From Candidatus Magasanikiibacteriota bacterium (lineage in GTDB: Bacteria > Patescibacteriota > Patescibacteriia > Magasanikbacterales > GWA2-37-8), in the NCBI GenBank assembly GCA_030650025.1, contig JAUSEN010000008.1, positions 1,164-65,163 on the forward strand: DNA of 64,000 nt, written 5' to 3'. Both the position numbers and the translations under genes were made by a program. Shown piece by piece: positions 3,636 through 62,133 of the stretch. The notes under the pieces were generated by a model. The model was not told the origin of the DNA and made no database searches. It was given only the letters and a program-made list of their open reading frames with translations. How positions within the stretch are numbered: the stretch's first letter is position 1; every line of letters begins with the position of its first letter.

Positions 3636-3666
3636 ATTATTTATTCTGATTTATTCGAAATCATCA

Positions 3667-4032: not shown

Positions 4033-4383
4033 TTAGATAAATTCTATCACGGCTGTCTGGCTGCCATCCCCTTTACGCGGGCCGAGCATGGTCAACCTGG
4101 TGTAGCCGCCTTTCCGATCTTTATAGCGTGGGCCCAAAACTTCCATCAGCTTCTTGACAGCTTTATCAGTATGGAGATCAGCCCGGAGCAGGCGGCGAGC
4201 CGCCAGCGTATTATTCTTGGCCGACGTTACCAGCCTTTCCACTCGGCTCTGCGCGGCTTTCGCTTTCGCCTTGGTAGTTTTAATTTTTTCGTGCAAAATC
4301 AAGCTCTCGGCCAAATTGCGAAGCAAGGCCGTGCGCGGCCCAACCTTCCGATCTAGAGTAATTTTCTTTTTTTGATGCCGCAT
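4033..4383 (-). CDS. rplQ: 50S ribosomal protein L17
   Basis: MRHQKKKITLDRKVGPRTALLRNLAESLILHEKIKTT... matches the L17 N-terminus. Start trimmed to the ATG at 4383; the track ORF extends into the shared leader repeat. Confidence 0.9.
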   Translation of the reverse strand: MRHQKKKITLDRKVGPRTALLRNLAESLILHEKIKTTKAKAKAAQSRVERLVTSAKNNTLAARRLLRADLHTDKAVKKLMEVLGPRYKDRKGGYTRLTMLGPRKGDGSQTAVIEFI

Positions 4384-4430
4384 ACGATTTGACAAAATCG
4401 TGCCGCGCAATGTCCTTTGAAGCGCGGCGC
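4384..4430 (-). promoter_or_regulatory. Conserved two-hairpin 5' leader motif directly abutting the rplQ start codon
   Basis: Minus strand reads GCGCCGCGC-TTCAAAGGACATT-GCGCGGCAC (hairpin 1), then CGATTT-TGTC-AAATCG (hairpin 2), then T-ATG. A near-identical copy is upstream of rpsM and a compensated copy upstream of mraZ. TAAATTAAATAAT lies just 5'. Confidence 0.5.
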
Positions 4431-4442
4431 AAATTATTTAAT

Positions 4443-5288
4443 TTACTTCTTGCTTGCCTTTTTAACCTTGGCTTTCGCTTTCTTTTCCTTTTTTTCTGTT
4501 TTAGCGGCCTCTTCATCCGGGCTAGCCTCTTCAGCGGTTATTTCGGGAATAGCGGCGGCCTCCACTGTTTCGCGCGTGAATACTTCCGTGGCGCTAGCTT
4601 GTTCCACTGACTCGGAAATTACCGTAAAATGATCCATCAATATTTGCGTAGCCTGACGCAAAGCTTCACGCGGGCTGATTGTACCGTTGGTTTCGATATT
4701 AATAGTCAATTTCTCGTAGTTAGTGATGTCGCCAACGCGAGTGTACTCCACGTGATAACCAACATCCTTAACCGGTGTATAGACTGAATCTACCACCATA
4801 GTGCCAAGGTCATAATTCTTGCGATCTTTTTCCTCAACCGGCCTATAACCACGGCCTTTGCCAACCACAATTTCCATTTCGAAAATTTTGTTGCTTGTTA
4901 AATTGCAAATCACTAAATTCTTGTTAGCCACTTCCACGTCCGAATTCTTTTCAATATCCGCGGCTGTCACCGGGCCTGGGCCTTTTTTTACCAAATTCAA
5001 TTTGACCGGCTCGTCCGAAAATACTTTCACTGCCAGTTGCTTTAAATTAAGCATTATTTCCACGATATCTTCCTTCACGCCTTCGGCCGTGGTAAATTCG
5101 TGCTCGACGCCTTTGATTTTAAAATATTCTACCGCCGAACCCGGGAGAGAGGACAATAAAACGCGGCGATAAGCATTGCCAAGCGTCGTGGCGTAGCCAT
5201 GATAACACGGCATCACCACCACGGAACCAAGGCTCGGTGTGTCGCCTTCAAAAAATTCGATTTTAGATGGCAAGAGAAAATTTTCCAT
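4443..5288 (-). CDS. rpoA: DNA-directed RNA polymerase subunit alpha, N-terminal (assembly) domain only; no alpha-CTD
   Basis: Alpha-NTD is conserved through ...ALRQATQILMDHF. The protein then ends in a 45-aa acidic/Lys-rich tail (EEAAKTEKKEKKAKAKVKKASKK) instead of the ~80-aa alpha-CTD. Confidence 0.9.
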   Translation of the reverse strand: MENFLLPSKIEFFEGDTPSLGSVVVMPCYHGYATTLGNAYRRVLLSSLPGSAVEYFKIKGVEHEFTTAEGVKEDIVEIMLNLKQLAVKVFSDEPVKLNLVKKGPGPVTAADIEKNSDVEVANKNLVICNLTSNKIFEMEIVVGKGRGYRPVEEKDRKNYDLGTMVVDSVYTPVKDVGYHVEYTRVGDITNYEKLTINIETNGTISPREALRQATQILMDHFTVISESVEQASATEVFTRETVEAAAIPEITAEEASPDEEAAKTEKKEKKAKAKVKKASKK

Positions 5289-6406: not shown

Positions 6407-6793
6407 TTAAGTTTTTTGCCCGTCGGGTTTGCGGCCGCTACCCATGGTCTTGCGAACATTGCCCCTAACCGTGCGGGAGTTAGTTTTGGTGCGCTGGCCG
6501 CGAACTGGCAAATGCTTCATGTGGCGAATGCCGCGGTAGCTCTTGGTATCTTTCAAAGTTTTGATATTACTCATTATTTCGCGGCGCAAATCGCCTTCGG
6601 TCTTAAAATTCTTCTCAACATATGCCCGCAGGGTATCTTCTTGTTCATTGGTCAAATCCTTGGTGCGGATATTGCCGTCAATCTTAGTAGCCACTAAGAT
6701 TTTTTTTGCCAGCGTTGCGCCAATGCCAAAAATATAACGCAGTGAAAACTCGATCTTCTTTTCCTCTGGTATGTTAGTACTGGCAATACGCAT
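6407..6793 (-). CDS. rpsM: 30S ribosomal protein S13
   Basis: [25 protein letters not shown]... Start trimmed to the ATG at 6793; the track ORF extends into the leader repeat. Confidence 0.9.
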
Positions 6794-6840
6794 ACGATTT
6801 AACAAAATCGTGCCGCGCAATGTCCTTTGAGGCGCGGCGC
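6794..6840 (-). promoter_or_regulatory. Second copy of the two-hairpin leader motif, abutting the rpsM start
   Basis: GCGCCGCGCC-TCAAAGGACATT-GCGCGGCAC-GATTTTGTTAAATCG-T-ATG. TTAGATTAAATTAA lies immediately 5'. Confidence 0.5.
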
Positions 6841-7399: not shown

Positions 7400-7592
7400 T
7401 CAAGAAAATTTAACTGGACACTATTTTAAACTAAATCCTGGGTTCTGTCAAGGGCGTGCCTTTTTTTACATTGGCAGCTTTTGAGTAACCACAAAATTTC
7501 GCTTATTTTAGCCTAAATAAATAAAAAACTAACATAGCCGCTAGCGACTTTTTGATAAATACATCATACCACAAGCATGACTTATTCACAAC

Positions 7593-16043: not shown

Positions 16044-17459
16044 CTAAACCTTTTTTGCAGTACCCTTTACTGGATCAATCTCTACCAAATCTCCATTTTT
16101 AAATACTGTGGTCACGGTTTTCGTTCCAACAATGCATGGAATGTTTAATTCTCGGCTTGTAATAGCCGCATGCGAGGTGAGCCCACCGGTATCTGTTAAA
16201 ACTGCACAGGCCTTTTTCATAGCAAAAACATATTCCGGGCTAGTCATCGGCGCCACCAACACCTCACCTTCCTTAAAACTTTCTACCTTAGTTGGATCAA
16301 ATAAAATATGCACGACCCCCTTAATCATGGCGCCACTACCTTTACTCGCCACCGCCCCCCTTACTTCCGACGCTCCAACCGCAGATTTTTCTGTGCCATA
16401 CAAATTCCAATAAAAATCTACTTCCTGTGAGGATAATTCCCGGCAATCGTGGAAAAACCAAACGCCAAAACCATTGGCTCGTTTTTTTAATTCCTCGTGC
16501 AAATCTTGACCACTTATAATTTCGGCAATTTGATTATGCCACAAATTGTGTAACTCATCAAAACTATATTTATAACGACGCGCCACTTCGCTGGTCAAAA
16601 CATCAATATAATGCAAAATAATGAATATACTTTTTTTGCGTTCATCTTGCCACTCGATACCATACGTAATCGCCTTAGCTATAGCCATAATCTCTGGCGG
16701 TAAATTATATTGTGCTTGAAAACTGGCCTTGCGTTTAGCCGTTTCTGCTAATTTTGTTTTAACGTTACTTTCAAAATCAGTCGGGATTTCTTTTTTGTGT
16801 TCAGCAAACCAGGACTCAGACAAAATTTGGGTACCAGCATAGCTATTTTTTAACCAGTAAAATTGTTCAACGTGCTTTTTAAGATCGCTCGTGTTAACTA
16901 GGGCAATTTCTTCTTCCTGATAAAAAGAAATTTGCTCTGGCGCGGTTAACACTTCAAGAGCCGAACGCAATTCATCTTGGTCCGTAATAATAGGCTTTAA
17001 TTTTTCTGTCAGATACTCGGTCGAACCGTAATTTGCTAATTCGGGAATCGACCCAGCCACCCAAAATTTAAGATATAAATCATTAAAATTATTCCACAAC
17101 TTTAACAGCTCGCTATCGCTAGCAGCTGATAGTTTAAGCGAACCAATATGCTTTTCTAAGCTAGCGATCTCCCGATCATAACCCTGCCATTCTTTATATA
17201 TGCCCTCACGAGAAATCGAGGGTAACATGTACTTAACAAAAACTCGCTGCCCGGCCGCGACTACGTCTGGTGTGTTGTTAACCCAAAACGAACGACCGTC
17301 CTTAAACATCCATAAAGTCTCCGACCAATTTTCAGCAAACTTGGCACGAAAGGCTTGGTAGTGAGTCTCCACAAACGTAGAAACATACAAAAATTTGCCT
17401 GGCACTGGCCCCCAACGAAAAATATCGCCTTTGGAATCAAACGGAGTTTTATTTTGCAT
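16044..17459 (-). CDS. Protein with an unknown ~370-aa N-terminal domain and a C-terminal PEP-utilising-enzyme mobile (phosphohistidine swivel) domain
   Basis: C-terminus ...VLVAPMTSPEYVFAMKKACAVLTDTGGLTSHAAITSRELNIPCIVG carries the PEP-utilizers catalytic His motif. Overlaps the upstream HD gene by 11 nt. Confidence 0.7.
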   Translation of the reverse strand: MQNKTPFDSKGDIFRWGPVPGKFLYVSTFVETHYQAFRAKFAENWSETLWMFKDGRSFWVNNTPDVVAAGQRVFVKYMLPSISREGIYKEWQGYDREIASLEKHIGSLKLSAASDSELLKLWNNFNDLYLKFWVAGSIPELANYGSTEYLTEKLKPIITDQDELRSALEVLTAPEQISFYQEEEIALVNTSDLKKHVEQFYWLKNSYAGTQILSESWFAEHKKEIPTDFESNVKTKLAETAKRKASFQAQYNLPPEIMAIAKAITYGIEWQDERKKSIFIILHYIDVLTSEVARRYKYSFDELHNLWHNQIAEIISGQDLHEELKKRANGFGVWFFHDCRELSSQEVDFYWNLYGTEKSAVGASEVRGAVASKGSGAMIKGVVHILFDPTKVESFKEGEVLVAPMTSPEYVFAMKKACAVLTDTGGLTSHAAITSRELNIPCIVGTKTVTTVFKNGDLVEIDPVKGTAKKV

Positions 17460-19066: not shown

Positions 19067-20998
19067 TTACCCACCAACATTCGCCACTGTATTCGGAGGC
19101 AAGTTCTGCGGCGGGCGGGGCGGTTTAGACGGCTCGGGCACAAACCCCAAATCTAATGGCGCTGGCACATCGACTGGCGGGGACGGAGTTGTTGATTTTT
19201 GGGCACTGACAATATCAATTGATATTGGCTTTTGAACAAGTGGCGCGGGCGCTGTCAAAGTACGCAAAGAAACGCCGGGCGCGGCCGGGTTGCCGAGTAA
19301 TACCGGAGTCCCTCCGCCTGGCGGCATACCCCCGCCCCCTCGGTTCCTTTTACGCTTACGCTTTTTTTCTTGACCAGGCCCACCTGGTACGCTGGGAGCA
19401 GAGTTAAATTGAGGTGGGCGAGAGAAACTAGCGAGCGGCTTAGGTGTTGCAACAGGGGGCTTAGGCAGAGACGAATTCAGCGATTTTTGGGTTATTGGCA
19501 AAGGCGCCGGAGCCGATCTCACCGCCACCGGCAGACTGGCTGTTGACTTATTATTAGTAGAAGCAGAATTAGAAACAGGCAGAGAGGCAAGCGCGGCGAC
19601 TTTGGGTGGAATGTCACCAAACATCGCTTCGTCTTCATCAACTTCTAAATTACCAGCTTCGTCCCCACCCGTGACTAGCATGCCGCTCCAACGCGCGATT
19701 TTATCTTCAATCTTCTCGCGCGGCAGGGCATAGCGCTCGCGCGATACTCGAATCACCTTTTCCGTACTGTCAGTCGGGGTGCCAATTGGCGGCAGGGTCA
19801 AGGCGCTAAACGGCCGCGAAGCCACGCCATCAATCATCAGTTTTAAATAAACATGGTACTTAGGCAAATTAACTAAATCTTCTTCTATAAACGTCGGCGC
19901 GAATTCTTTGGCTAAAATTTCGGCGTCACTCGAACCCACTCTAAAAGTAATCATGGTGCCAACGTTGCCAACCACCGCGGCCAACACTTCCTCTTCCAGC
20001 TGTTCCATGTACTGGTGCGCCATGGTTAAGTCCAGCCGATACTTACGCGCTTCGGACAAAATATTCGCGAAGCTTTCGTTGGCAAAATTTTGGAACTCGT
20101 CTACATACATAAAAAAATCTTTGCGCTCGGTCTCGGGGATATCCACCCGCTCCATAGCCGCCAGCTGGATCTTGGTAATCAGCATACCGCCGAGGAGCCG
20201 AGAATTATCCTCGCCGATCCGGCCTTTAGAAAGATTCATTATAAAAATTCTTTTATTATCCATTATCTCGCGAATATCGATGCGAGATTTAACTTGCGCC
20301 ACAATGTTGCGAATAACCGATGCCGACAAAAACTGACCGATTTTATTTTGGATCGGCGCCACGGCCTCGGTCCGAAACTTCTCGGCATAATTAGCGAACT
20401 CCGTGGTCCAAAAAGCTTTCACGACCGGGTCCTTGGAATTATTAACCACGCGGCGGCGATAGTCCGCGTCCGCTAGCATTCGATTAATGCCAAGTAATGT
20501 CGTCCCCGGGAAATCTAAAAGCGCGAGTATTGTGTTATTCAAAATATATTCCATACGTGCGCTCCACACATCCGGCCAGATTTTTTTAAACACGCCCATG
20601 AGGCCACTCGCCACCAAATGCTTTTGCTCGGGCCGGACAGTTTCTAAAATATTAAACCCAATCGGAAAATCAATGTCCGCCGGATTAAAATAAACCACGT
20701 CATTAATGCGGTTCGCCGGAATGTAATTAATAATTTTTTCCGCGAAGTCCCCGTGCGGGTCTACCAAGCCCACCCCATGCCCGGCGTAAATATCGTTCAA
20801 AACCATATTTTCCAAAATCGTGGTTTTGCCCATGCCGGTTTTACCCACCACATAAACATGCCGGCGGCGATCGTCGATTTTAATGCCAAACTTCCGATTT
20901 TGATTCCGAAAATTAGTTAAACCAAAAAAATTAATCTCTGGGTTAGATTTTATAGTGCCTGCTTGCGGCTCCAAGCCACCACCTTGTTCTTCACTCAT
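19067..20998 (-). CDS. VirD4/TraG/TraD-like type IV coupling-protein ATPase with a Pro-rich low-complexity C-terminal tail
   Basis: Walker A VVGKTGMGKTT; Walker B FFMYVDEFQNF; RKYRLDLTMAHQYMEQL (TraG-D_C-like motif). C-terminal ~200 aa is P/S/A-rich with KKRKRKRNRGGGG. Confidence 0.6.
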   Translation of the reverse strand: MSEEQGGGLEPQAGTIKSNPEINFFGLTNFRNQNRKFGIKIDDRRRHVYVVGKTGMGKTTILENMVLNDIYAGHGVGLVDPHGDFAEKIINYIPANRINDVVYFNPADIDFPIGFNILETVRPEQKHLVASGLMGVFKKIWPDVWSARMEYILNNTILALLDFPGTTLLGINRMLADADYRRRVVNNSKDPVVKAFWTTEFANYAEKFRTEAVAPIQNKIGQFLSASVIRNIVAQVKSRIDIREIMDNKRIFIMNLSKGRIGEDNSRLLGGMLITKIQLAAMERVDIPETERKDFFMYVDEFQNFANESFANILSEARKYRLDLTMAHQYMEQLEEEVLAAVVGNVGTMITFRVGSSDAEILAKEFAPTFIEEDLVNLPKYHVYLKLMIDGVASRPFSALTLPPIGTPTDSTEKVIRVSRERYALPREKIEDKIARWSGMLVTGGDEAGNLEVDEDEAMFGDIPPKVAALASLPVSNSASTNNKSTASLPVAVRSAPAPLPITQKSLNSSLPKPPVATPKPLASFSRPPQFNSAPSVPGGPGQEKKRKRKRNRGGGGMPPGGGTPVLLGNPAAPGVSLRTLTAPAPLVQKPISIDIVSAQKSTTPSPPVDVPAPLDLGFVPEPSKPPRPPQNLPPNTVANVGG

Positions 20999-21089: not shown

Positions 21090-21193
21090 TGTCATTTCGA
21101 CCCCGCCTCTGGCGGGGAGAAATCTCTATCACAATTGTGAAATGGACAGAGATTCCTCGTCGGTCGCCATAGGCGACCTCGCTCGGAATGACA
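21090..21193. mobile_element. About 104-bp MITE-like element with TGTCATT...AATGACA termini and two internal GC hairpins
   Basis: tgtcatttcgaCCCCGCCtctgGCGGGGagaaatctct...gagattcctcgtcGGTCGCCataGGCGACCtcgctcggaatgaca. Intergenic, between the coupling-ATPase and AMMECR1 genes. Confidence 0.55.
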
Positions 21194-35602: not shown

Positions 35603-36514
35603 TTATATTTTTTCTACCACCCGAAGTTTAGCGCTTTTGGCGCGCGCGTTCTCCGCGACTTCCTCCGCGCTCGCCACGATTGGTTTATTATTTACTAATT
35701 TAATAATCTTATTATTAATCGACTTAAAATATTGTTTGACTATTCTGTCTTCTAAAGAATGAAACGCGATCACGGCCAGCCGCCCGCCTTGCGCGAGTAA
35801 AGCCACGGCTTGAGGTAACGCTTGTCGTAATACCTCAAGCTCGTGGTTTACTTCAATCCGGAGGGCTTGAAAAACTTTAGTGGCGGGGTGTAATCCGCCG
35901 ATCCAAGGCACGGGTGCGTCTGTGCGAAGTTTCGCGCGATAGCTTTGTAAAATAATGTCCGAAAGCTCACCGCTTCTCTCGATAGGGTGGCGCTCTCGAG
36001 CCGCCACAATTGCCCGCGCGATTTCGTTGTAGAGATTTTCTTCTCCATAGGTACGAAATAATTTCGCCAAGGCTTCTTCCGAATAACTATTGACTACGTC
36101 AGCCGCGGTGGATGAATTCTTGTCTTGCTGGCCGCCAAAACGCATGTCAAGCGGCTCGTCTGCTAAAAAACTAAAGCCTCTCCCCCGCTCCCTGAACTGC
36201 GGACTGCTCCAGCCCAAATCCATTAAAATCGCGTCGACCGGACCAAAATGATTTTCAACGACAATTTTTTTTAAATTTATAAAATTGTCCCTCACGCCGA
36301 TTACTTGTTCTTGCCATTTATACAAATATTGTTTAGAGCGCAGGAGCGATTCCGGATCCGCGTCAATCCCAAGCAACTTCCCCTTCGGCCCGATCTTTTC
36401 TAAAATTTTGGCTGCGTGGCCGCCGTCTCCGAGCGTGCAATCAACTACCTGCATTCCGCTTTTAAGCTGTAAATTGTCAACAACCTCGTTTAATAATGCC
36501 GGTACATGGCGCAT
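35603..36514 (-). CDS. rsmH: 16S rRNA (cytosine1402-N4)-methyltransferase RsmH (MraW)
   Basis: ...HVPALLNEVVDNLQLKSGMQVVDCTLGDGGHAAKIL... SAM-binding region; ...DLGWSSPQ...; canonical dcw position. Confidence 0.9.
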   Translation of the reverse strand: MRHVPALLNEVVDNLQLKSGMQVVDCTLGDGGHAAKILEKIGPKGKLLGIDADPESLLRSKQYLYKWQEQVIGVRDNFINLKKIVVENHFGPVDAILMDLGWSSPQFRERGRGFSFLADEPLDMRFGGQQDKNSSTAADVVNSYSEEALAKLFRTYGEENLYNEIARAIVAARERHPIERSGELSDIILQSYRAKLRTDAPVPWIGGLHPATKVFQALRIEVNHELEVLRQALPQAVALLAQGGRLAVIAFHSLEDRIVKQYFKSINNKIIKLVNNKPIVASAEEVAENARAKSAKLRVVEKI

Positions 36515-36515
36515 A

Positions 36516-36965
36516 CTAAACTCCTAGTTCCGCCATTTTTTCCGCGATCGCGTTGCTTTCAGCCTCGGTACGGCTCTTATAATGTTCCCACTCGGGTTTA
36601 GCCCAAATTTCTAAGCGGCTGTACAGCCCGGCAATAACTACTTCTTTTTTTAAACCGGCAAAAACTCGCAAATATTCCGGGAGCATGGCGCGACCCTGCT
36701 TATCAATCGGGATATCCATGGCGCCCGCTAGCATTAAACGCGCAAACGCGCGGCTATTAGCTTGAGCCATAGGGAGTGCGGCCAATTTCTCGGCGAGCTT
36801 ACCCCACTCGGCCTTGGTGAAAACAAACAAGCAATTATCAAGACCGCGGGTCACCACTGCCCCTTTTTTTAAGTCATTCCGGAATTTGGCGGGCAGGGCC
36901 ACACGCCCTTTATCGTCTAGCGTGTGCGAAAATTCTCCTATGAACATATGAATTGACGAATTCAT
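36516..36965 (-). CDS. mraZ: Transcriptional regulator MraZ
   Basis: Two MraZ repeats: ...MFIGEFSHTLDDKGRVALPAKFR... and ...DKQGRAMLPEYLR.... Start at the first ATG after the leader hairpin (36965). An alternative ATG at 36947 gives the canonical MFIGEF N-terminus. Confidence 0.85.
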   Translation of the reverse strand: MNSSIHMFIGEFSHTLDDKGRVALPAKFRNDLKKGAVVTRGLDNCLFVFTKAEWGKLAEKLAALPMAQANSRAFARLMLAGAMDIPIDKQGRAMLPEYLRVFAGLKKEVVIAGLYSRLEIWAKPEWEHYKSRTEAESNAIAEKMAELGV

Positions 36966-37036
36966 GCCCGATTCAACAGAATCGTGCCGAGCAGTGTCCT
37001 TTGAAGCTCGGCTCGCATTCCTTTGAAGCGCGGCGC
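36966..37036 (-). promoter_or_regulatory. Third, compensated copy of the two-hairpin leader motif (plus a partial tandem extra copy) abutting the mraZ start
   Basis: Minus strand: GCGCCGCGC-TTCAAAGGAATGCGA-GCCGAGC-TTCAAAGGACACT-GCTCGGC-AC-GATTCTGTTGAATCG-GGC-ATG. Stem 1 is GCCGAGC/GCTCGGC here versus GCGCCGCGC/GCGCGGCAC at rplQ and rpsM. The loop is conserved. Confidence 0.5.
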
Positions 37037-37234
37037 TAGTGAGTAAAGTAGTAAGACAAGCATTTTCACCACTCTTCCCCACTTATAACCATTTTACACC
37101 ACTTAAAAACACTAGTCAACACTTAAAACCAGAGTTATCCACAGTCCTTCGGTCGCCTAAGGCGACCTTCGGACTGCAAGCGCTTTTTTGCGTGTCTAAG
37201 ACGAATAATATGCGCAGACGATAAAATAAAAAAA

Positions 37235-37260
37235 CAGGGGCATGATATATCATGCCCCTG
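37235..37260. terminator. Bidirectional intrinsic terminator (CAGGGGCATGATATATCATGCCCCTG) downstream of the MBL-fold gene
   Basis: Perfect palindrome flanked by AAAAAAA 5' and TGAATTTTTTTATT 3'. The minus strand reads hairpin plus TGTTTTTTTATTTT. Confidence 0.7.
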
Positions 37261-37296
37261 TGAATTTTTTTATTCTCTAAAACAAGTTAATAATTT

Positions 37297-38715
37297 TTAG
37301 ACCCTAACCTCTAAGCCCACGTTTACCACTGTGGCTTTCACCCCCAAATCCTCGGTTATTCTTTTGGCGAGAGCTTCCGAAGCCACCGGGTCGCCGTGGT
37401 TTAAATAAACCTTTTTTGGAGTCGTAGCGCCTCCGCCAATCCAATCAAGGAGTTTATCCTGATCGCCGTGCGCGGACAGCGCTCCCACCATTTTTACTTT
37501 GCATCTTACCTCGACTCTCTCGCCAAGTATGTCTACAAAACGCTGGCCGTCCACAATTTTCCGCCCCAGCGTCCCTGCGGACTGGTAGCCAATGATGAGC
37601 AAAGTATTTTTGGGGTCTGACAAATAGCGCAGAGCGTGGAACACAATGCGCCCGCCGTTCATCATACCCGCGCCCGCGATAATAATTTTACAACCCGGCG
37701 TGTGGTTAATCTTCATGGATTCTTCGCGCAAATGAGTGAGCGTGAGGCCGGGAAAATTAAATAAATCATCGCCCGCTTTAAAATATTTAGCGGCTTCAGC
37801 GTCGTAATACTCGGGATATTTTTCGTAAACTTTAATAGCATCAATTGCCAAAGGCGAATCTAAAAAAATCGGAACCCGAGGCAGTTTCTTCTTACGGTCA
37901 ATCAAATCATTTAATTCATATAATAACTCTTGAGTGCGCTCGAGCGAAAAAGACGGAATCATAACCACGCCACCCCGCTCTATCCCCTCGCGAATCATAT
38001 TTTCGATTACTTCTTGCCGCTCGTGCACACTCTCGTGCAAGCGATTGCCATATGTCGATTCGCAAATCAGGGCGTCTAGCCCCCCGGGCAATTTTTCGGT
38101 ATCACGGAGTATCGGCACCTCAACGTTGCCGACGTCCCCACTAAACACAATTCGCTTCCCCTCACCGGCAATTTCAATAAACGCCGAACCAAAAATATGC
38201 CCCGCGTCGTGAAACTTAACGACAACCTCACCACTAGTGTCATTCCCGCGTAAGCGGGAATCTAACTCTCTTGACTTCAAGATCCCCGCTTTCGCGGGGA
38301 TGACAATCTCCTCTCCATATTCCACTCCCACAAACATGCTCATCACGCTAGCGATGTCGCTCTCTGCATACAAAATTGGCGTCTTTAATTTGCGATTGTT
38401 ATAAGTCATGACGTTGAGCGCGTCGTCCAAAATTAGCTGCGCCAGCTCCACGGTTGGTTTGGTCGCGTAAATCTTGCCCGCAAAACCATTTTTCGTTAAG
38501 AGCGGCAAACGCCCCACGTGGTCCAAATGCGCGTGGGTCACAAACACGGCCGCGATGGCTTTGTGATCATACCCGAGCGGTTCTGAATTTCTCTTCTCAA
38601 TTTCCGGACTGCCCTGATGCAGGCCACAATCAACCAAAAACTTCTGGCCGCCAACCTCAATCATACTATTAGAACCCGTCACTTCCCGCGCCGCCCCAAA
38701 AAACGTAATTTTCAT
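37297..38715 (-). CDS. MBL-fold metallo-hydrolase (beta-CASP / RNA-metabolising type) with an in-frame MITE insertion
   Basis: HxHxDH motif VFVTHAHLDHVGRLP; ...FHDAGHIFGSAFIEI.... The inserted segment IPAKAGILKSRELDSRLRGNDTSGE is encoded by the element at 38239-38305. Confidence 0.75.
   Translation of the reverse strand: MKITFFGAAREVTGSNSMIEVGGQKFLVDCGLHQGSPEIEKRNSEPLGYDHKAIAAVFVTHAHLDHVGRLPLLTKNGFAGKIYATKPTVELAQLILDDALNVMTYNNRKLKTPILYAESDIASVMSMFVGVEYGEEIVIPAKAGILKSRELDSRLRGNDTSGEVVVKFHDAGHIFGSAFIEIAGEGKRIVFSGDVGNVEVPILRDTEKLPGGLDALICESTYGNRLHESVHERQEVIENMIREGIERGGVVMIPSFSLERTQELLYELNDLIDRKKKLPRVPIFLDSPLAIDAIKVYEKYPEYYDAEAAKYFKAGDDLFNFPGLTLTHLREESMKINHTPGCKIIIAGAGMMNGGRIVFHALRYLSDPKNTLLIIGYQSAGTLGRKIVDGQRFVDILGERVEVRCKVKMVGALSAHGDQDKLLDWIGGGATTPKKVYLNHGDPVASEALAKRITEDLGVKATVVNVGLEVRV
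38239..38305. repeat. Complete ~67-bp MITE-like element (TGTCATTCCCGCGTAAGCGGGAATC...GATCCCCGCTTTCGCGGGGATGACA) inserted inside the MBL-fold CDS
   Basis: TGTCAT/ATGACA termini. Two internal hairpins: ATTCCCGCgtaaGCGGGAAT and ATCCCCGCtttcGCGGGGAT. The host ORF remains open. Confidence 0.6.
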
Positions 38716-48469: not shown

Positions 48470-49122
48470 ACAAACAAAGATTTAACTAAATCAACCACGA
48501 CTCTAAACCCGCTAATCATTCCTTGGCCATATTCGTGATAATAAACCGTTACCGGCACTTCGGCGAATTTTAAATTGTTCCGCTTTAAACTCCCCACAAT
48601 CTCACTGTTATGCGCCATGCGCGGCTGTTCAATTCTAATTTTTTGTAAAGCCGCGGCTCCAAAAATTCTAAAACCATTTTGCCCGTCTGTCAACTTAACT
48701 CCTGCGAATAAAAAATTAATTAGCCTAGCTAACGGCAAAATTAATAAACGTTTAGAAACTGGCAGGCGATTAGCGCGCATAAAACGCGATCCTAAAACCG
48801 CGTCTAAATTCCCGACTTTTAAAAACTCTAGAGCCGGAGCAATATCCCCTGCGTCGTGCTGGTTGTCCGCGTCAAAATGAACTACCGTGTCAAATCCTTG
48901 GCGGCGCGCGTACTCATTGCCAGTTTCTAAGGCCGCTCCTTGGCCGCGGTTAAGCGCGTGGCGCAAAACCACCGCCCCCTCGCTGGCCGCAATTTCCCCG
49001 GTTACGTCCCCTGACCCATCGTCTACCACTACCACGTCTTTAAATCCGTGTTCAAAAAGGTCGCGGAGCACGCGACCAATCTTCTTGGCTTCATTATAAG
49101 CCGGAATTATAATCAGCGCCAT
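48466..49122 (-). CDS. Glycosyltransferase family 2 (dolichol/polyprenol-phosphate hexosyltransferase-like)
   Basis: ...ALIIIPAYNEAKKIGRVL...VVVVDDGSGD...HFDADNQHD... carries the DxD and GT2 motifs. Start set at the ATG at ~49122. Confidence 0.8.
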   Translation of the reverse strand: MALIIIPAYNEAKKIGRVLRDLFEHGFKDVVVVDDGSGDVTGEIAASEGAVVLRHALNRGQGAALETGNEYARRQGFDTVVHFDADNQHDAGDIAPALEFLKVGNLDAVLGSRFMRANRLPVSKRLLILPLARLINFLFAGVKLTDGQNGFRIFGAAALQKIRIEQPRMAHNSEIVGSLKRNNLKFAEVPVTVYYHEYGQGMISGFRVVVDLVKSLFV

Positions 49123-61728: not shown

Positions 61729-62133
61729 ATGAAGTTGACAACTTTCACGGACGGCGGCGCCCGCGGCAACCCCGGGCCAGCCGCTCTCGGCGTCGTTATT
61801 AAAAATGAATCTGGCGTCATTCTCTCCGCCTATGGCGAATATTTGGGCTCCCAAACTAATAACTTTGCCGAATATAGCGCTCTGCTCTCGGCCTTAAACC
61901 GGGCGCACCAGCTGGGCGCTACCGAGGTGGCTTGCGTATTGGACAGCGAACTCATCGTCAAGCAAATGAACAGAATATACAAAGTAAAAGAACCCACGCT
62001 CCAAAAATTATTTATTCAGGTTTATAACGCCGCCGCCAAATTTAAACGCGTCTCTTATCGCCATATATTGCGCGCCGGTAATTACGAAGCCGACGCTGAA
62101 GTCAACAAAGCTATCGATAATCATGTAAAATAA
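61729..62133 (+). CDS. RNase H-like (ribonuclease HI family, short type)
   Basis: TDGGARGNPGPAALGVV (D); NNFAEYSALLSAL (E); ...VLDSELIVKQ (D); ...NYEADAEVNKAID (D). Confidence 0.75.
   Translation: MKLTTFTDGGARGNPGPAALGVVIKNESGVILSAYGEYLGSQTNNFAEYSALLSALNRAHQLGATEVACVLDSELIVKQMNRIYKVKEPTLQKLFIQVYNAAAKFKRVSYRHILRAGNYEADAEVNKAIDNHVK

Follow-up and report, generated by a model that had tools for sequence, protein, structure and literature searches.

Introduction

Among described repeats, the closest in position to the element reported here are the TAACTGA direct repeats of marine Beggiatoaceae, most of which lie a few nucleotides 5' of start codons, including those of ribosomal-protein operons, in genomes with few canonical ribosome-binding sites; their distribution is patchy and possibly horizontal, and they have been proposed to be the site of a post-transcriptional regulator (PMC4679880). 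Those repeats are unstructured tandem heptamers, whereas the element described below is a 47-90-nt fold with covarying helices and a conserved loop. We analyzed it in a stretch of 64,000 nucleotides (hereafter, the window) from an assembly of a Candidatus Magasanikiibacteriota bacterium (GCA_030650025.1, contig JAUSEN010000008.1), where three copies are found, all on the minus (mRNA) strand and located at the starts of the genes rplQ, rpsM, and mraZ. Each belongs to a dispersed repeat that is restricted to this lineage and behaves like a portable mRNA leader with its own fold.

The REP/BIME, ERIC, pneumococcal BOX, and Neisseria Correia repeats resemble this element in being short, multi-copy, hairpin-forming, patchily distributed, organized into modular subfamilies, and located in transcribed intergenic spacers, and they can alter mRNA stability or processing. 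However, these repeats occur in both orientations, at variable distances from genes and often at 3' ends, whereas 13 out of 13 copies of the element are in the sense of the following gene and end at its position -1. The element also lacks the terminal inverted repeats and target duplications known from Correia repeats and miniature inverted-repeat transposable elements (MITEs), as well as the GTAG/RAYT signature of REPs. The element differs from these palindromic repeats in that it strictly abuts -1, keeps one orientation, and has a covarying fold of two modules.

Other comparisons concern leaders of individual genes. In phage T4 genes 38 and 25, a hairpin separates a purine-rich motif from the ATG, as in the element; however, the Shine-Dalgarno (SD) sequence there lies 5' of the hairpin in a host that uses SD, whereas the motif of the element lies in a loop, is not conserved, and occurs in an SD-less genome. 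The ompA 5' untranslated region (UTR), the aprE leader of B. subtilis, cryIIIA STAB-SD, and the R sites of phage T7 all have a strong hairpin 5' of a cistron, and the imperfect duplex of about 22 bp in the long form of the element, together with its intercistronic copies, recalls such stabilizer hairpins or RNase III sites. Those are single-locus structures with no conserved apical loop and no ATG abutment, whereas the element is a dispersed family. The GGA sites of CsrA/RsmE and, as a design analog, the eukaryotic iron-responsive elements resemble the element in that several unrelated mRNAs carry them in their leaders and in that the stem covaries while the loop is conserved, but the element has a 13-nt loop and no second GGA at the start, in which it differs from CsrA/RsmE sites. 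The S4 pseudoknot of the alpha operon and the L10_leader of Rfam (RF00557) share with the element the leader position in ribosomal-protein operons; both are conserved at one operon across phyla, whereas the element is neither conserved nor operon-specific. A search of Rfam 15 gave no match at the gathering score and nothing relevant at E<=10, and no description of the element was found in the literature.

A covarying, loop-conserved family that always ends at -1 in the sense orientation, and that is present in essential ribosomal-protein operons of a reduced genome from the candidate phyla radiation (CPR), is unusual. It provides a testable handle on translation start and on the stabilizing or processing of polycistronic mRNA in SD-less Patescibacteria, including a possible new start mode, and it bears on the movement of cis-acting leader modules between genes and genomes.

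Structure and Covariation of the Element

In addition to the window, which represents about 7% of its source genome, the analysis covered some 150 kb of related loci (designated L with a number). Of these, L013-L016 and L020 come from assembly ERZ27248448 and L017 from GCA_964439885.1. The short form of the element (47 nt) is organized into a GC hairpin (HP1) with a 7-bp stem and a 13-nt loop, followed by an AU hairpin (HP2) with a 7-bp AU-rich stem and a tetraloop, the final paired base of HP2 being position -1 of the gene. In the long form (about 90 nt), HP1 is extended to about 22 bp. The copy preceding rplQ (copy 1), for example, reads GCGCCGCGC-TTCAAAGGACATT-GCGCGGC-ACGATTTTGTCAAATCGT, followed by the rplQ ATG; its minimum-free-energy (MFE) fold consists of the two adjoining hairpins (-19.8 kcal/mol, z -2.8), and it scores 75.3 bits (E 2.1e-19) with the covariance model.

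Compensatory changes were identified in each of the helices. In the alignment of HP1 (8 distinct sequences), 98% of cells are paired and three of the seven pairs have changed on both sides (G-C/A-U, C-G/A-U, and C-G/U-A); the covariation score was reached in only 1 of 500 shuffles. The HP2-type hairpins (13 distinct) have 94.5% of cells paired, again with changes on both sides in three of the seven pairs, and none of 500 shuffles reached their covariation score. The outer helix of the long form is imperfect and contributes 15 pairs, or 22 together with HP1; two-sided compensations are found in L016 (C-G to U-A) and in the copy upstream of rplL (A-U to G-C). A model with the outer helix performs better than one with local hairpins; it absorbs a change that breaks the local hairpin and gives a better fit for the L016 and rplL variants. 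The long form as a simple nested insertion was ruled out, because its outer strands are both complementary and covarying; thus, the long form is an extended hairpin. Moreover, the outer helix contains 13 G.U cells vs. 2 A.C cells, indicating that the sense strand is the folding strand, which points to RNA. With every helix supported by compensatory changes, these comparisons support a structure that is kept at the RNA level.

The initial annotation of the window had reported the three copies with a fully compensated first stem and an identical loop, and had argued from these for an RNA structure. All three copies were recovered on the minus strand at the positions given there. The compensation of the first stem is real, but among the window copies it amounts to one pair (C-G to A-U), and the second hairpin also has one (U-A to C-G); the loop is not strictly identical, as two of its positions vary (Y). 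The RNA structure itself is borne out by compensatory changes in both hairpins over 13 copies and by the prevalence of G.U over A.C in the outer helix of the long form.

The HP1 loop, with the consensus YUYAAWSGAYRYU, is more conserved than the stems. GGA is present in the HP1 loop of 12 of the 13 copies, as is the extended motif ANGGA, whereas the complete AAAGGA is found in 10; the variants are AACGGA in the copy upstream of xseB (L020) and AATCGA in L012, and L016 carries AAAGGAT. The L012 copy, in which GGA is lost from the HP1 loop, keeps AUGGA in its outer segment. Two structural identities were considered and rejected: a self-cleaving ribozyme, hammerhead-like or other (the essential A is missing from CUGUUGA, and Rfam gave no match), and a T-loop or tRNA-like mimic (the first U of the loop varies to C).

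Copies in the Window and the True Start of mraZ

With the covariance model of the core, all three copies in the window (Table 1) score 75 bits (E about 2e-19), and a scan of the 64 kb by the same model with filters off gave no fourth credible copy. A 19-nt pattern for the junction matched three times in the window vs. 0.09 matches expected. The copies upstream of rplQ and rpsM are short forms that are identical at 45 of 47 positions (96% over 52 nt), and in both of them AAAGGA is located 29 nt before the ATG; the rpsM product is 100% identical to a protein in NCBI from a metagenome-assembled genome of Candidatus Magasanikbacteria. An AU hairpin similar to HP2 (GATTT-CGAAT-AAATC, 3648-3662) is present in the rplM-rpsI spacer, 12 nt 5' of the rpsI ATG, and may be a relic or a chance occurrence. 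The HP2-like AU palindromes, namely this one and that at 48479-48492, were not scored as copies because they are too common elsewhere.

The third copy is a long form in the mraZ 5' UTR, 92% identical to that of L013 over 92 nt. Its MFE fold (-35.5 kcal/mol, z -3.84) is a nested long hairpin followed by an AU hairpin (HP2b): the upstream partial repeat pairs with the first HP2-like segment and thereby lengthens HP1 into an imperfect helix, in which a second AAAGGA is base-paired. HP2b duplicates HP2 in diverged form, and two of its pairs are compensated. The initial annotation had placed this copy next to an mraZ ATG at 36965. The proposed abutment holds, as 13 out of 13 copies adjoin an ATG in the sense orientation, but the ATG at 36965 is not the real start. 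Position 1 of the Pfam MraZ profile aligns to residue 7 of the open reading frame (ORF) that begins at 36965; we therefore assign the true mraZ start to the ATG at 36947..36945, which HP2b directly adjoins. The in-frame upstream ATG (36965..36963) lies inside the 5' arm of HP2b and would add MNSSIH to MraZ; the base at -1 is C at this upstream ATG and T at the true one, as in 33 of 45 genes. Since the predicted mraZ promoter is located upstream of the long form (Table 1), the element is presumably transcribed and constitutes the 3' two-thirds of the 5' UTR.

Copies in Other Genomes and Their Absence in Close Relatives

We identified 10 further copies in four other Magasanikbacteria-type assemblies, which gives a total of 13 copies in five genomes ranging from 32 to 47% GC. 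The metagenome scan used a pattern of the HP1 3' arm plus HP2 and returned five loci, all of which contain the long form and end with ...AAATCAT|ATG. The scan by covariance model that the initial annotation had proposed was run on the window and the related loci; it added a sixth non-window copy, in L015, and the further copies found all adjoin an ATG. A short-form copy upstream of rplJ (protein P0228, locus L017) and a copy upstream of rpsM (P0012, L019) were traced via N-terminal extensions of database proteins, and another short-form copy was found upstream of xseB in a larger stretch of the L015 genome (L020). The genes downstream of the non-window copies are rplJ (in two genomes), rplL, rpsM, xseB, and nifU, as well as genes assigned by Pfam to SPFH/Band-7, type IV pilin-like, and methyltransferase-like proteins. 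This gene list is biased because two of the 13 copies came from ribosomal-protein look-ups; of the 10 copies found without a ribosomal-protein bait (three in the window, five from the metagenome scan, and two bystanders at rplL and xseB), four precede ribosomal-protein genes.

All 13 copies are in the sense of the gene, and in each the sequence of the AU hairpin ends at -1 of the true ATG; in L014, which has an 11-nt internal deletion, this hairpin is represented by its 3' arm alone. Six copies lie between cistrons, and in these the stop codon of the preceding gene is only 1-12 nt away. The element is the sole DNA that the window shares with loci L012-L016 (84-93% identity), and its copies are near-identical at unrelated loci within and between genomes (84-96% identity). 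The possibility that the orientation is set by replication is countered by the L016 pilin copy, which is located on the presumed lagging strand yet is in the sense of its gene. Among GTDB representative genomes, the stem-free pattern TCAAAGGACAYTN7CACGATT gave only two chance matches (Smithella and Phocaeicola), and neither a scan of IMG/VR nor a phage BLAST gave a match to the element.

An in-frame ATG or an open frame within the element leads gene callers to add false N-terminal extensions, as in the public annotation of S13 (MISSNH; P0012, L019) and L10 (FQRTLRGTISSNR; P0228, L017), as well as in the window MraZ (MNSSIH). The element thus creates a practical annotation problem, that is, wrong N-termini in public records. 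When its in-frame translation was searched against proteins in order to catch such mis-annotated extensions, no match was obtained. The element as a coding sequence was rejected, as its in-frame translation contains stops or frame differences in several copies.

The initial annotation regarded the element as a conserved leader and held that a lack of conservation or covariation in related genomes would weaken this. The helices do covary, but the orthologous sites upstream of rpsM, rplQ, rplJ, and rplL in close relatives are empty, and the description as a conserved leader is given up here. In the relatives with 78-93% identical S13 (L001, L003, L005, L007, L011, and L022), the element is absent from the rpsM and rplQ spacers, which are short and A/T-rich (usually 4-37 nt for rpmJ-rpsM and 2-28 nt for rpoA-rplQ); the 82-nt rpmJ-rpsM spacer of L005 holds an unrelated insert. 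It is likewise absent upstream of rplJ and rplL in relatives with 83-86% identical L10 (L018, L021, and P0123). Upstream of rplJ, L015 (7633-7797), L017 (7469-7621), and L018 (1150-1311) contain the Rfam L10_leader (RF00557), whose attenuator is of the terminator type. In L015 and L017 the element is located between the terminator of this leader and the rplJ ATG, whereas L018 has the leader without the element. In these three Magasanikbacteria, rplJ-rplL are separated from rplK-rplA.

The absence of the element from the same spacers of close relatives argues for a portable repeat of recent spread, and against both an S4 site and a leader conserved at an operon. The rplJ gene is preceded by the long form in L015 and by the short form in L017, and both forms occur together in one genome (L020); different forms at the same gene and both forms in the same genome are the mark of a family of repeats spread by copying, within genomes and probably also between them. 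As judged from these comparisons, the element is a recent and patchy gain that is restricted to a small group of Magasanikbacteria.

Start Context and Transcription

The window genome does not use SD sequences: in the window, only 3 of 45 ATG genes have an SD core (GGAG/GAGG/AGGA/AAGG) at -18..-4, vs. a background of 9.7%. Sequences upstream of the ATG are rich in A and T; position -1 is T in 33 of 45 genes and G in none, and the native start at 17459 reads AAATCAT|ATG. The initial annotation had described the HP1 loop as SD-like. This description is contradicted by the rarity of SD cores in the window, by the linear distance between the motif and the ATG (29 nt in the short form and about 50 nt in the long form, with the 3' arm of HP1 intervening even when HP2 is folded), and by the degeneration of the motif to AACGGA and AATCGA. 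No rRNA gene was found in the window or the related loci. Several genes have an extended -10 (TGATATACT / TGATATAAT) located just 9-30 nt 5' of the ATG, so their 5' UTRs are expected to be very short.

The infA-rpmJ-rpsM...rplQ operon has a strong predicted promoter upstream of infA (7451..7423), and the pilin copy lies about 20 nt 3' of an extended -10, with a terminator context there as well. Gene order and promoter predictions indicate that the element is co-transcribed with the downstream gene, either within operons or in 5' UTRs. A promoter within or just 5' of the element was considered, and none was predicted. With regard to the -10-like sequences (TAAATTAA) that had been noted just 5' of the element, A/T-rich stretches do exist at these positions, but they have no -35 partner and resemble the ordinary pre-ATG context; the spacer at 4431..4442, for instance, contains no predicted promoter-like site and resembles the generic pre-ATG context of this genome. 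An intrinsic terminator was also rejected, as the loop is 13 nt long, no U-run follows the stem, and no minus-strand terminator was predicted at these sites.

Proposed Function and Alternative Explanations

We propose, with a probability of roughly 0.45, that the element is a portable leader acting at the mRNA level, which would insulate, stabilize, or process the downstream message and whose GGA loop would bind a factor. In this model both hairpins, or the long hairpin plus HP2b, would start and end at the same junction and form a compact side-branch. Because the fold enters and exits at one point, the upstream stop codon or A/U-rich context would stay beside the ATG, and downstream translation would survive the insertion. 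A native-like context at -7..-1 (AAAUCRU, with U at -1) may come from the 3' arm of the AU hairpin, and the start region may be insulated by the stable hairpin. The latter could further shield or punctuate the message downstream, as a block to 5'-3' decay by RNase J or, in the long form, as a site of the RNase III type; CPR bacteria have kept both of these enzymes as well as PNPase (PMC12641178). The duplex available to RNase III would comprise 22 pairs (15 + 7) in the long form, and 7-9 + 7 pairs in two stacked hairpins in the short form. The AU hairpin (HP2/HP2b) is of low stability (-2.4 to -3.9 kcal/mol at 37 C). The conserved loop may be the recognition site of a trans-acting factor rather than an SD sequence, a CsrA-like binder being one possibility.

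Several points weigh against this proposal. Every functional step in it is deduced from the nucleotide sequence; the paired stretch of the short form falls short of the roughly two turns (about 20 bp) of a classical RNase III site; and neither a mobilizing enzyme nor a binding protein was identified in the covered 7% or so of the source genome. A hairpin over -18..-1 is expected to hinder initiation rather than to help it. The loop may be conserved because the copies are young or because a transposition enzyme recognizes it, and the patchy distribution, together with the MITE-like inserts that co-occur in similar spacers, fits a selfish element equally well.

Such an element is the main rival to the leader, although we consider it somewhat unlikely. 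On this view the repeat would be a small mobile element that is nothing but selfish, either of the REP or MITE type or descended from a single-strand-DNA transposon; it would insert next to ATG/CAT and survive only right before start codons, where no gene is broken. Its hairpins would serve transposition or would be kept only to limit the damage to translation downstream. This would account for presence and absence among close relatives at rpsM, rplQ, rplJ, and rplL, for near-identical copies at unrelated genes in genomes of differing GC, for short and long subfamilies in one genome, and for other MITE-like inserts in ribosomal-protein operon spacers. The constant 3' junction at the ATG, which leaves the protein N-terminus unchanged, also fits targeted insertion. 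However, the copies compared have no terminal inverted repeats, target-site duplication, conserved tetranucleotide in the 5' flank, or GTAG head as in REPs, and the roughly 55 window proteins include neither a transposase nor a RAYT. The two ends of the element, a GC hairpin and an AU hairpin, are dissimilar, whereas the ends of IS200/IS605 elements resemble each other. The excess of G.U pairs on the sense strand and the gene-sense copy on the presumed lagging strand favor a constraint at the RNA level, and neither the conservation of the loop above that of the stems nor the share of ribosomal-protein genes (4 out of 10 copies found without such bait) is in favor of a purely selfish element.

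It is improbable, in our view, that the element marks a translational operator regulon, in which the GGA loop of highly expressed genes is bound by a CsrA/Rsm-like or another global regulator that would thereby control initiation at the neighboring AU hairpin and ATG. The presence of ANGGA in all but one of the HP1 loops, the combination of a conserved loop with covarying stems, and the AUGGA retained outside HP1 in L012 are in line with such a regulon, as are the target genes, which are typical of high expression (ribosomal proteins, pilin, and NifU); csrA itself is reported to be among the highly expressed genes of ultra-small groundwater prokaryotes (PMC9938205). On the other hand, the 13-nt loop exceeds the loops of typical CsrA hairpins, and no GGA is found within 20 nt of the ATG, whereas classical CsrA repression uses a second site over the ribosome-binding site. 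The window and the related loci, which cover a small part of each genome, contain no csrA-like ORF, and the patchy phylogeny would be odd for an entrenched regulon.

More speculative still, and rather improbable, is a reading in which the element would be a horizontally spreading, self-contained start cassette for SD-less bacteria, with a nuclease cut at the base of the AUG-adjoining hairpin. The GGA loop would recruit a factor, and the cut would free the downstream cistrons of polycistronic transcripts as leaderless or hairpin-capped mRNAs, in a bacterial counterpart of mitochondrial tRNA punctuation. If so, the element could raise or reset the expression of any gene before which it lands.

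It is very doubtful that the AAAGGA loop is a split SD enhancer, that is, an SD sequence brought near to the ATG by hairpin 2. Although AAAGGA is present in 10 of the 13 HP1 loops, HP1 and HP2 adjoin so that the base of HP1 is next to the ATG, and T4 genes 38 and 25 are precedents for a hairpin-bridged SD, this genome makes no use of SD (3 of 45 genes against the 9.7% background), the motif decays to AACGGA or AATCGA in some copies, it lies about 50 nt from the ATG in the long form with the HP1 3' arm in between, and the second AAAGGA at mraZ is paired within the outer helix. Hardly any credence can be given to an autoregulatory site for a ribosomal protein, such as the S4 site suggested by the initial annotation, or to a DNA-level site (a promoter -10 or the operator of a dimeric factor): two of the window copies fall within the region of the alpha operon, on which S4 acts in E. 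coli, and HP2 is a 7-4-7 palindrome, but the element also precedes mraZ and the pilin, nifU, xseB, SPFH, and methyltransferase-like genes, is absent from the alpha operons of relatives, has no match to an Rfam leader and lies 3' of a genuine L10_leader that was detected separately at rplJ, has no -35/-10 pair, and has palindrome half-sites that differ within one genome (ACGATTC vs. ATGATTT), which argues for upkeep of a hairpin rather than recognition by one protein.

Coordinates and Neighboring Features

The positions of the three copies, their modules, and the adjacent genes are listed in Table 1.

Table 1. Features of the leader element and adjoining genes in the 64-kb window (positions in mRNA direction run from high to low).
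Feature	Position	Strand	Context or evidence
Short-form copy 1	4430..4384	minus	directly 5' of rplQ ATG (4383..4381)
Copy 1 HP1	5' arm 4428..4422; 13-nt loop 4421..4409; 3' arm 4408..4402	minus	
Copy 1 HP2 (ACGATTT-TGTC-AAATCGT)	4401..4384	minus	
A/T-rich spacer ATTAAATAATTT	4431..4442	minus	rpoA stop (4445..4443) to copy 1
rplQ (ribosomal protein L17)	4033..4383	minus	Pfam Ribosomal_L17, E 2.3e-33
Short-form copy 2	6840..6794	minus	directly 5' of rpsM ATG (6793..6791)
Copy 2 HP1 and HP2	HP1 6838..6812; HP2 6811..6794	minus	covariance model 75.3 bits; fold computed
A/T-rich spacer ATTAAATTAA	6841..6850	minus	rpmJ stop to copy 2
rpsM (ribosomal protein S13)	6407..6793	minus	Pfam Ribosomal_S13
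Copy 3 core	37014..36968	minus	mraZ upstream region; covariance model 75.4 bits
Copy 3 partial 5' repeat (GCGCCGCGCTTCAAAGGA)	37036..37019	minus	
Long-form copy	37036..36948 (about 90 nt)	minus	mraZ 5' UTR
Long form, outer-helix 5' strand (HP0)	37034..37014	minus	
Long form, HP1	37012..36986; loop 37005..36993	minus	
Long form, outer-helix 3' strand (HP2a)	36984..36966	minus	
Long form, AU hairpin HP2b (ATGAATT-CGTC-AATTCAT)	36965..36948	minus	
mraZ promoter TTGACT-17-TAAAAT	37119..37091	minus	10/12 matches
mraZ	36516..36947	minus	Pfam MraZ, E 5.6e-40
rsmH	35603-36514		3' neighbor of mraZ; MraW methylase family

The mraZ promoter is surrounded by GTGG(T/G)/GTGTT repeats with a spacing of about 10 nt (37045-37120), a pattern expected for MraZ autoregulatory boxes. 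Immediately 5' of this promoter, the gene at 37297-38715 encodes a beta-CASP/metallo-beta-lactamase/RMMBL ribonuclease (RNase J/CPSF-like), and it is followed by a perfect 12-bp palindrome (ACAGGGGCATGA/TCATGCCCCTGT, 37234-37261) with T-runs on both strands, which resembles a bidirectional terminator. Two other genes, encoding a TrwB-like coupling protein of a type IV secretion system (19067-20998) and a small RNase H/RVT_3 protein (61729-62133), are possible remnants of mobile DNA with no link to the element.

Unrelated MITE-like inserts are present in the operon spacers, ribosomal-protein and other, of related genomes (L017 8199-8310, L019 about 530-650, L020 18410-18530, and L005 3900-4000); they include the GTCATTCTGAG...CAGGATGAC family, and one insert is bounded by perfect terminal inverted repeats of 23 bp. 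The spacers of these small genomes have been repeatedly colonized by inserts. In the window, three direct repeats of about 89 nt (150-365), with the core GCTACCCGGGAATAAA + GCGCTA(T/C)CGCGGAGTTTACCCG, are located between the first ORF and greA (416-913); they vaguely resemble tRNA fragments, and ARAGORN predicted no tRNA there. A second small repeat, the hairpin GGTCGCC-TAA-GGCGACC, occurs at 317-338, 21157-21178, and 37146-37167, the last of which lies in the interval from the mraZ promoter to the RNase gene 5' of it.

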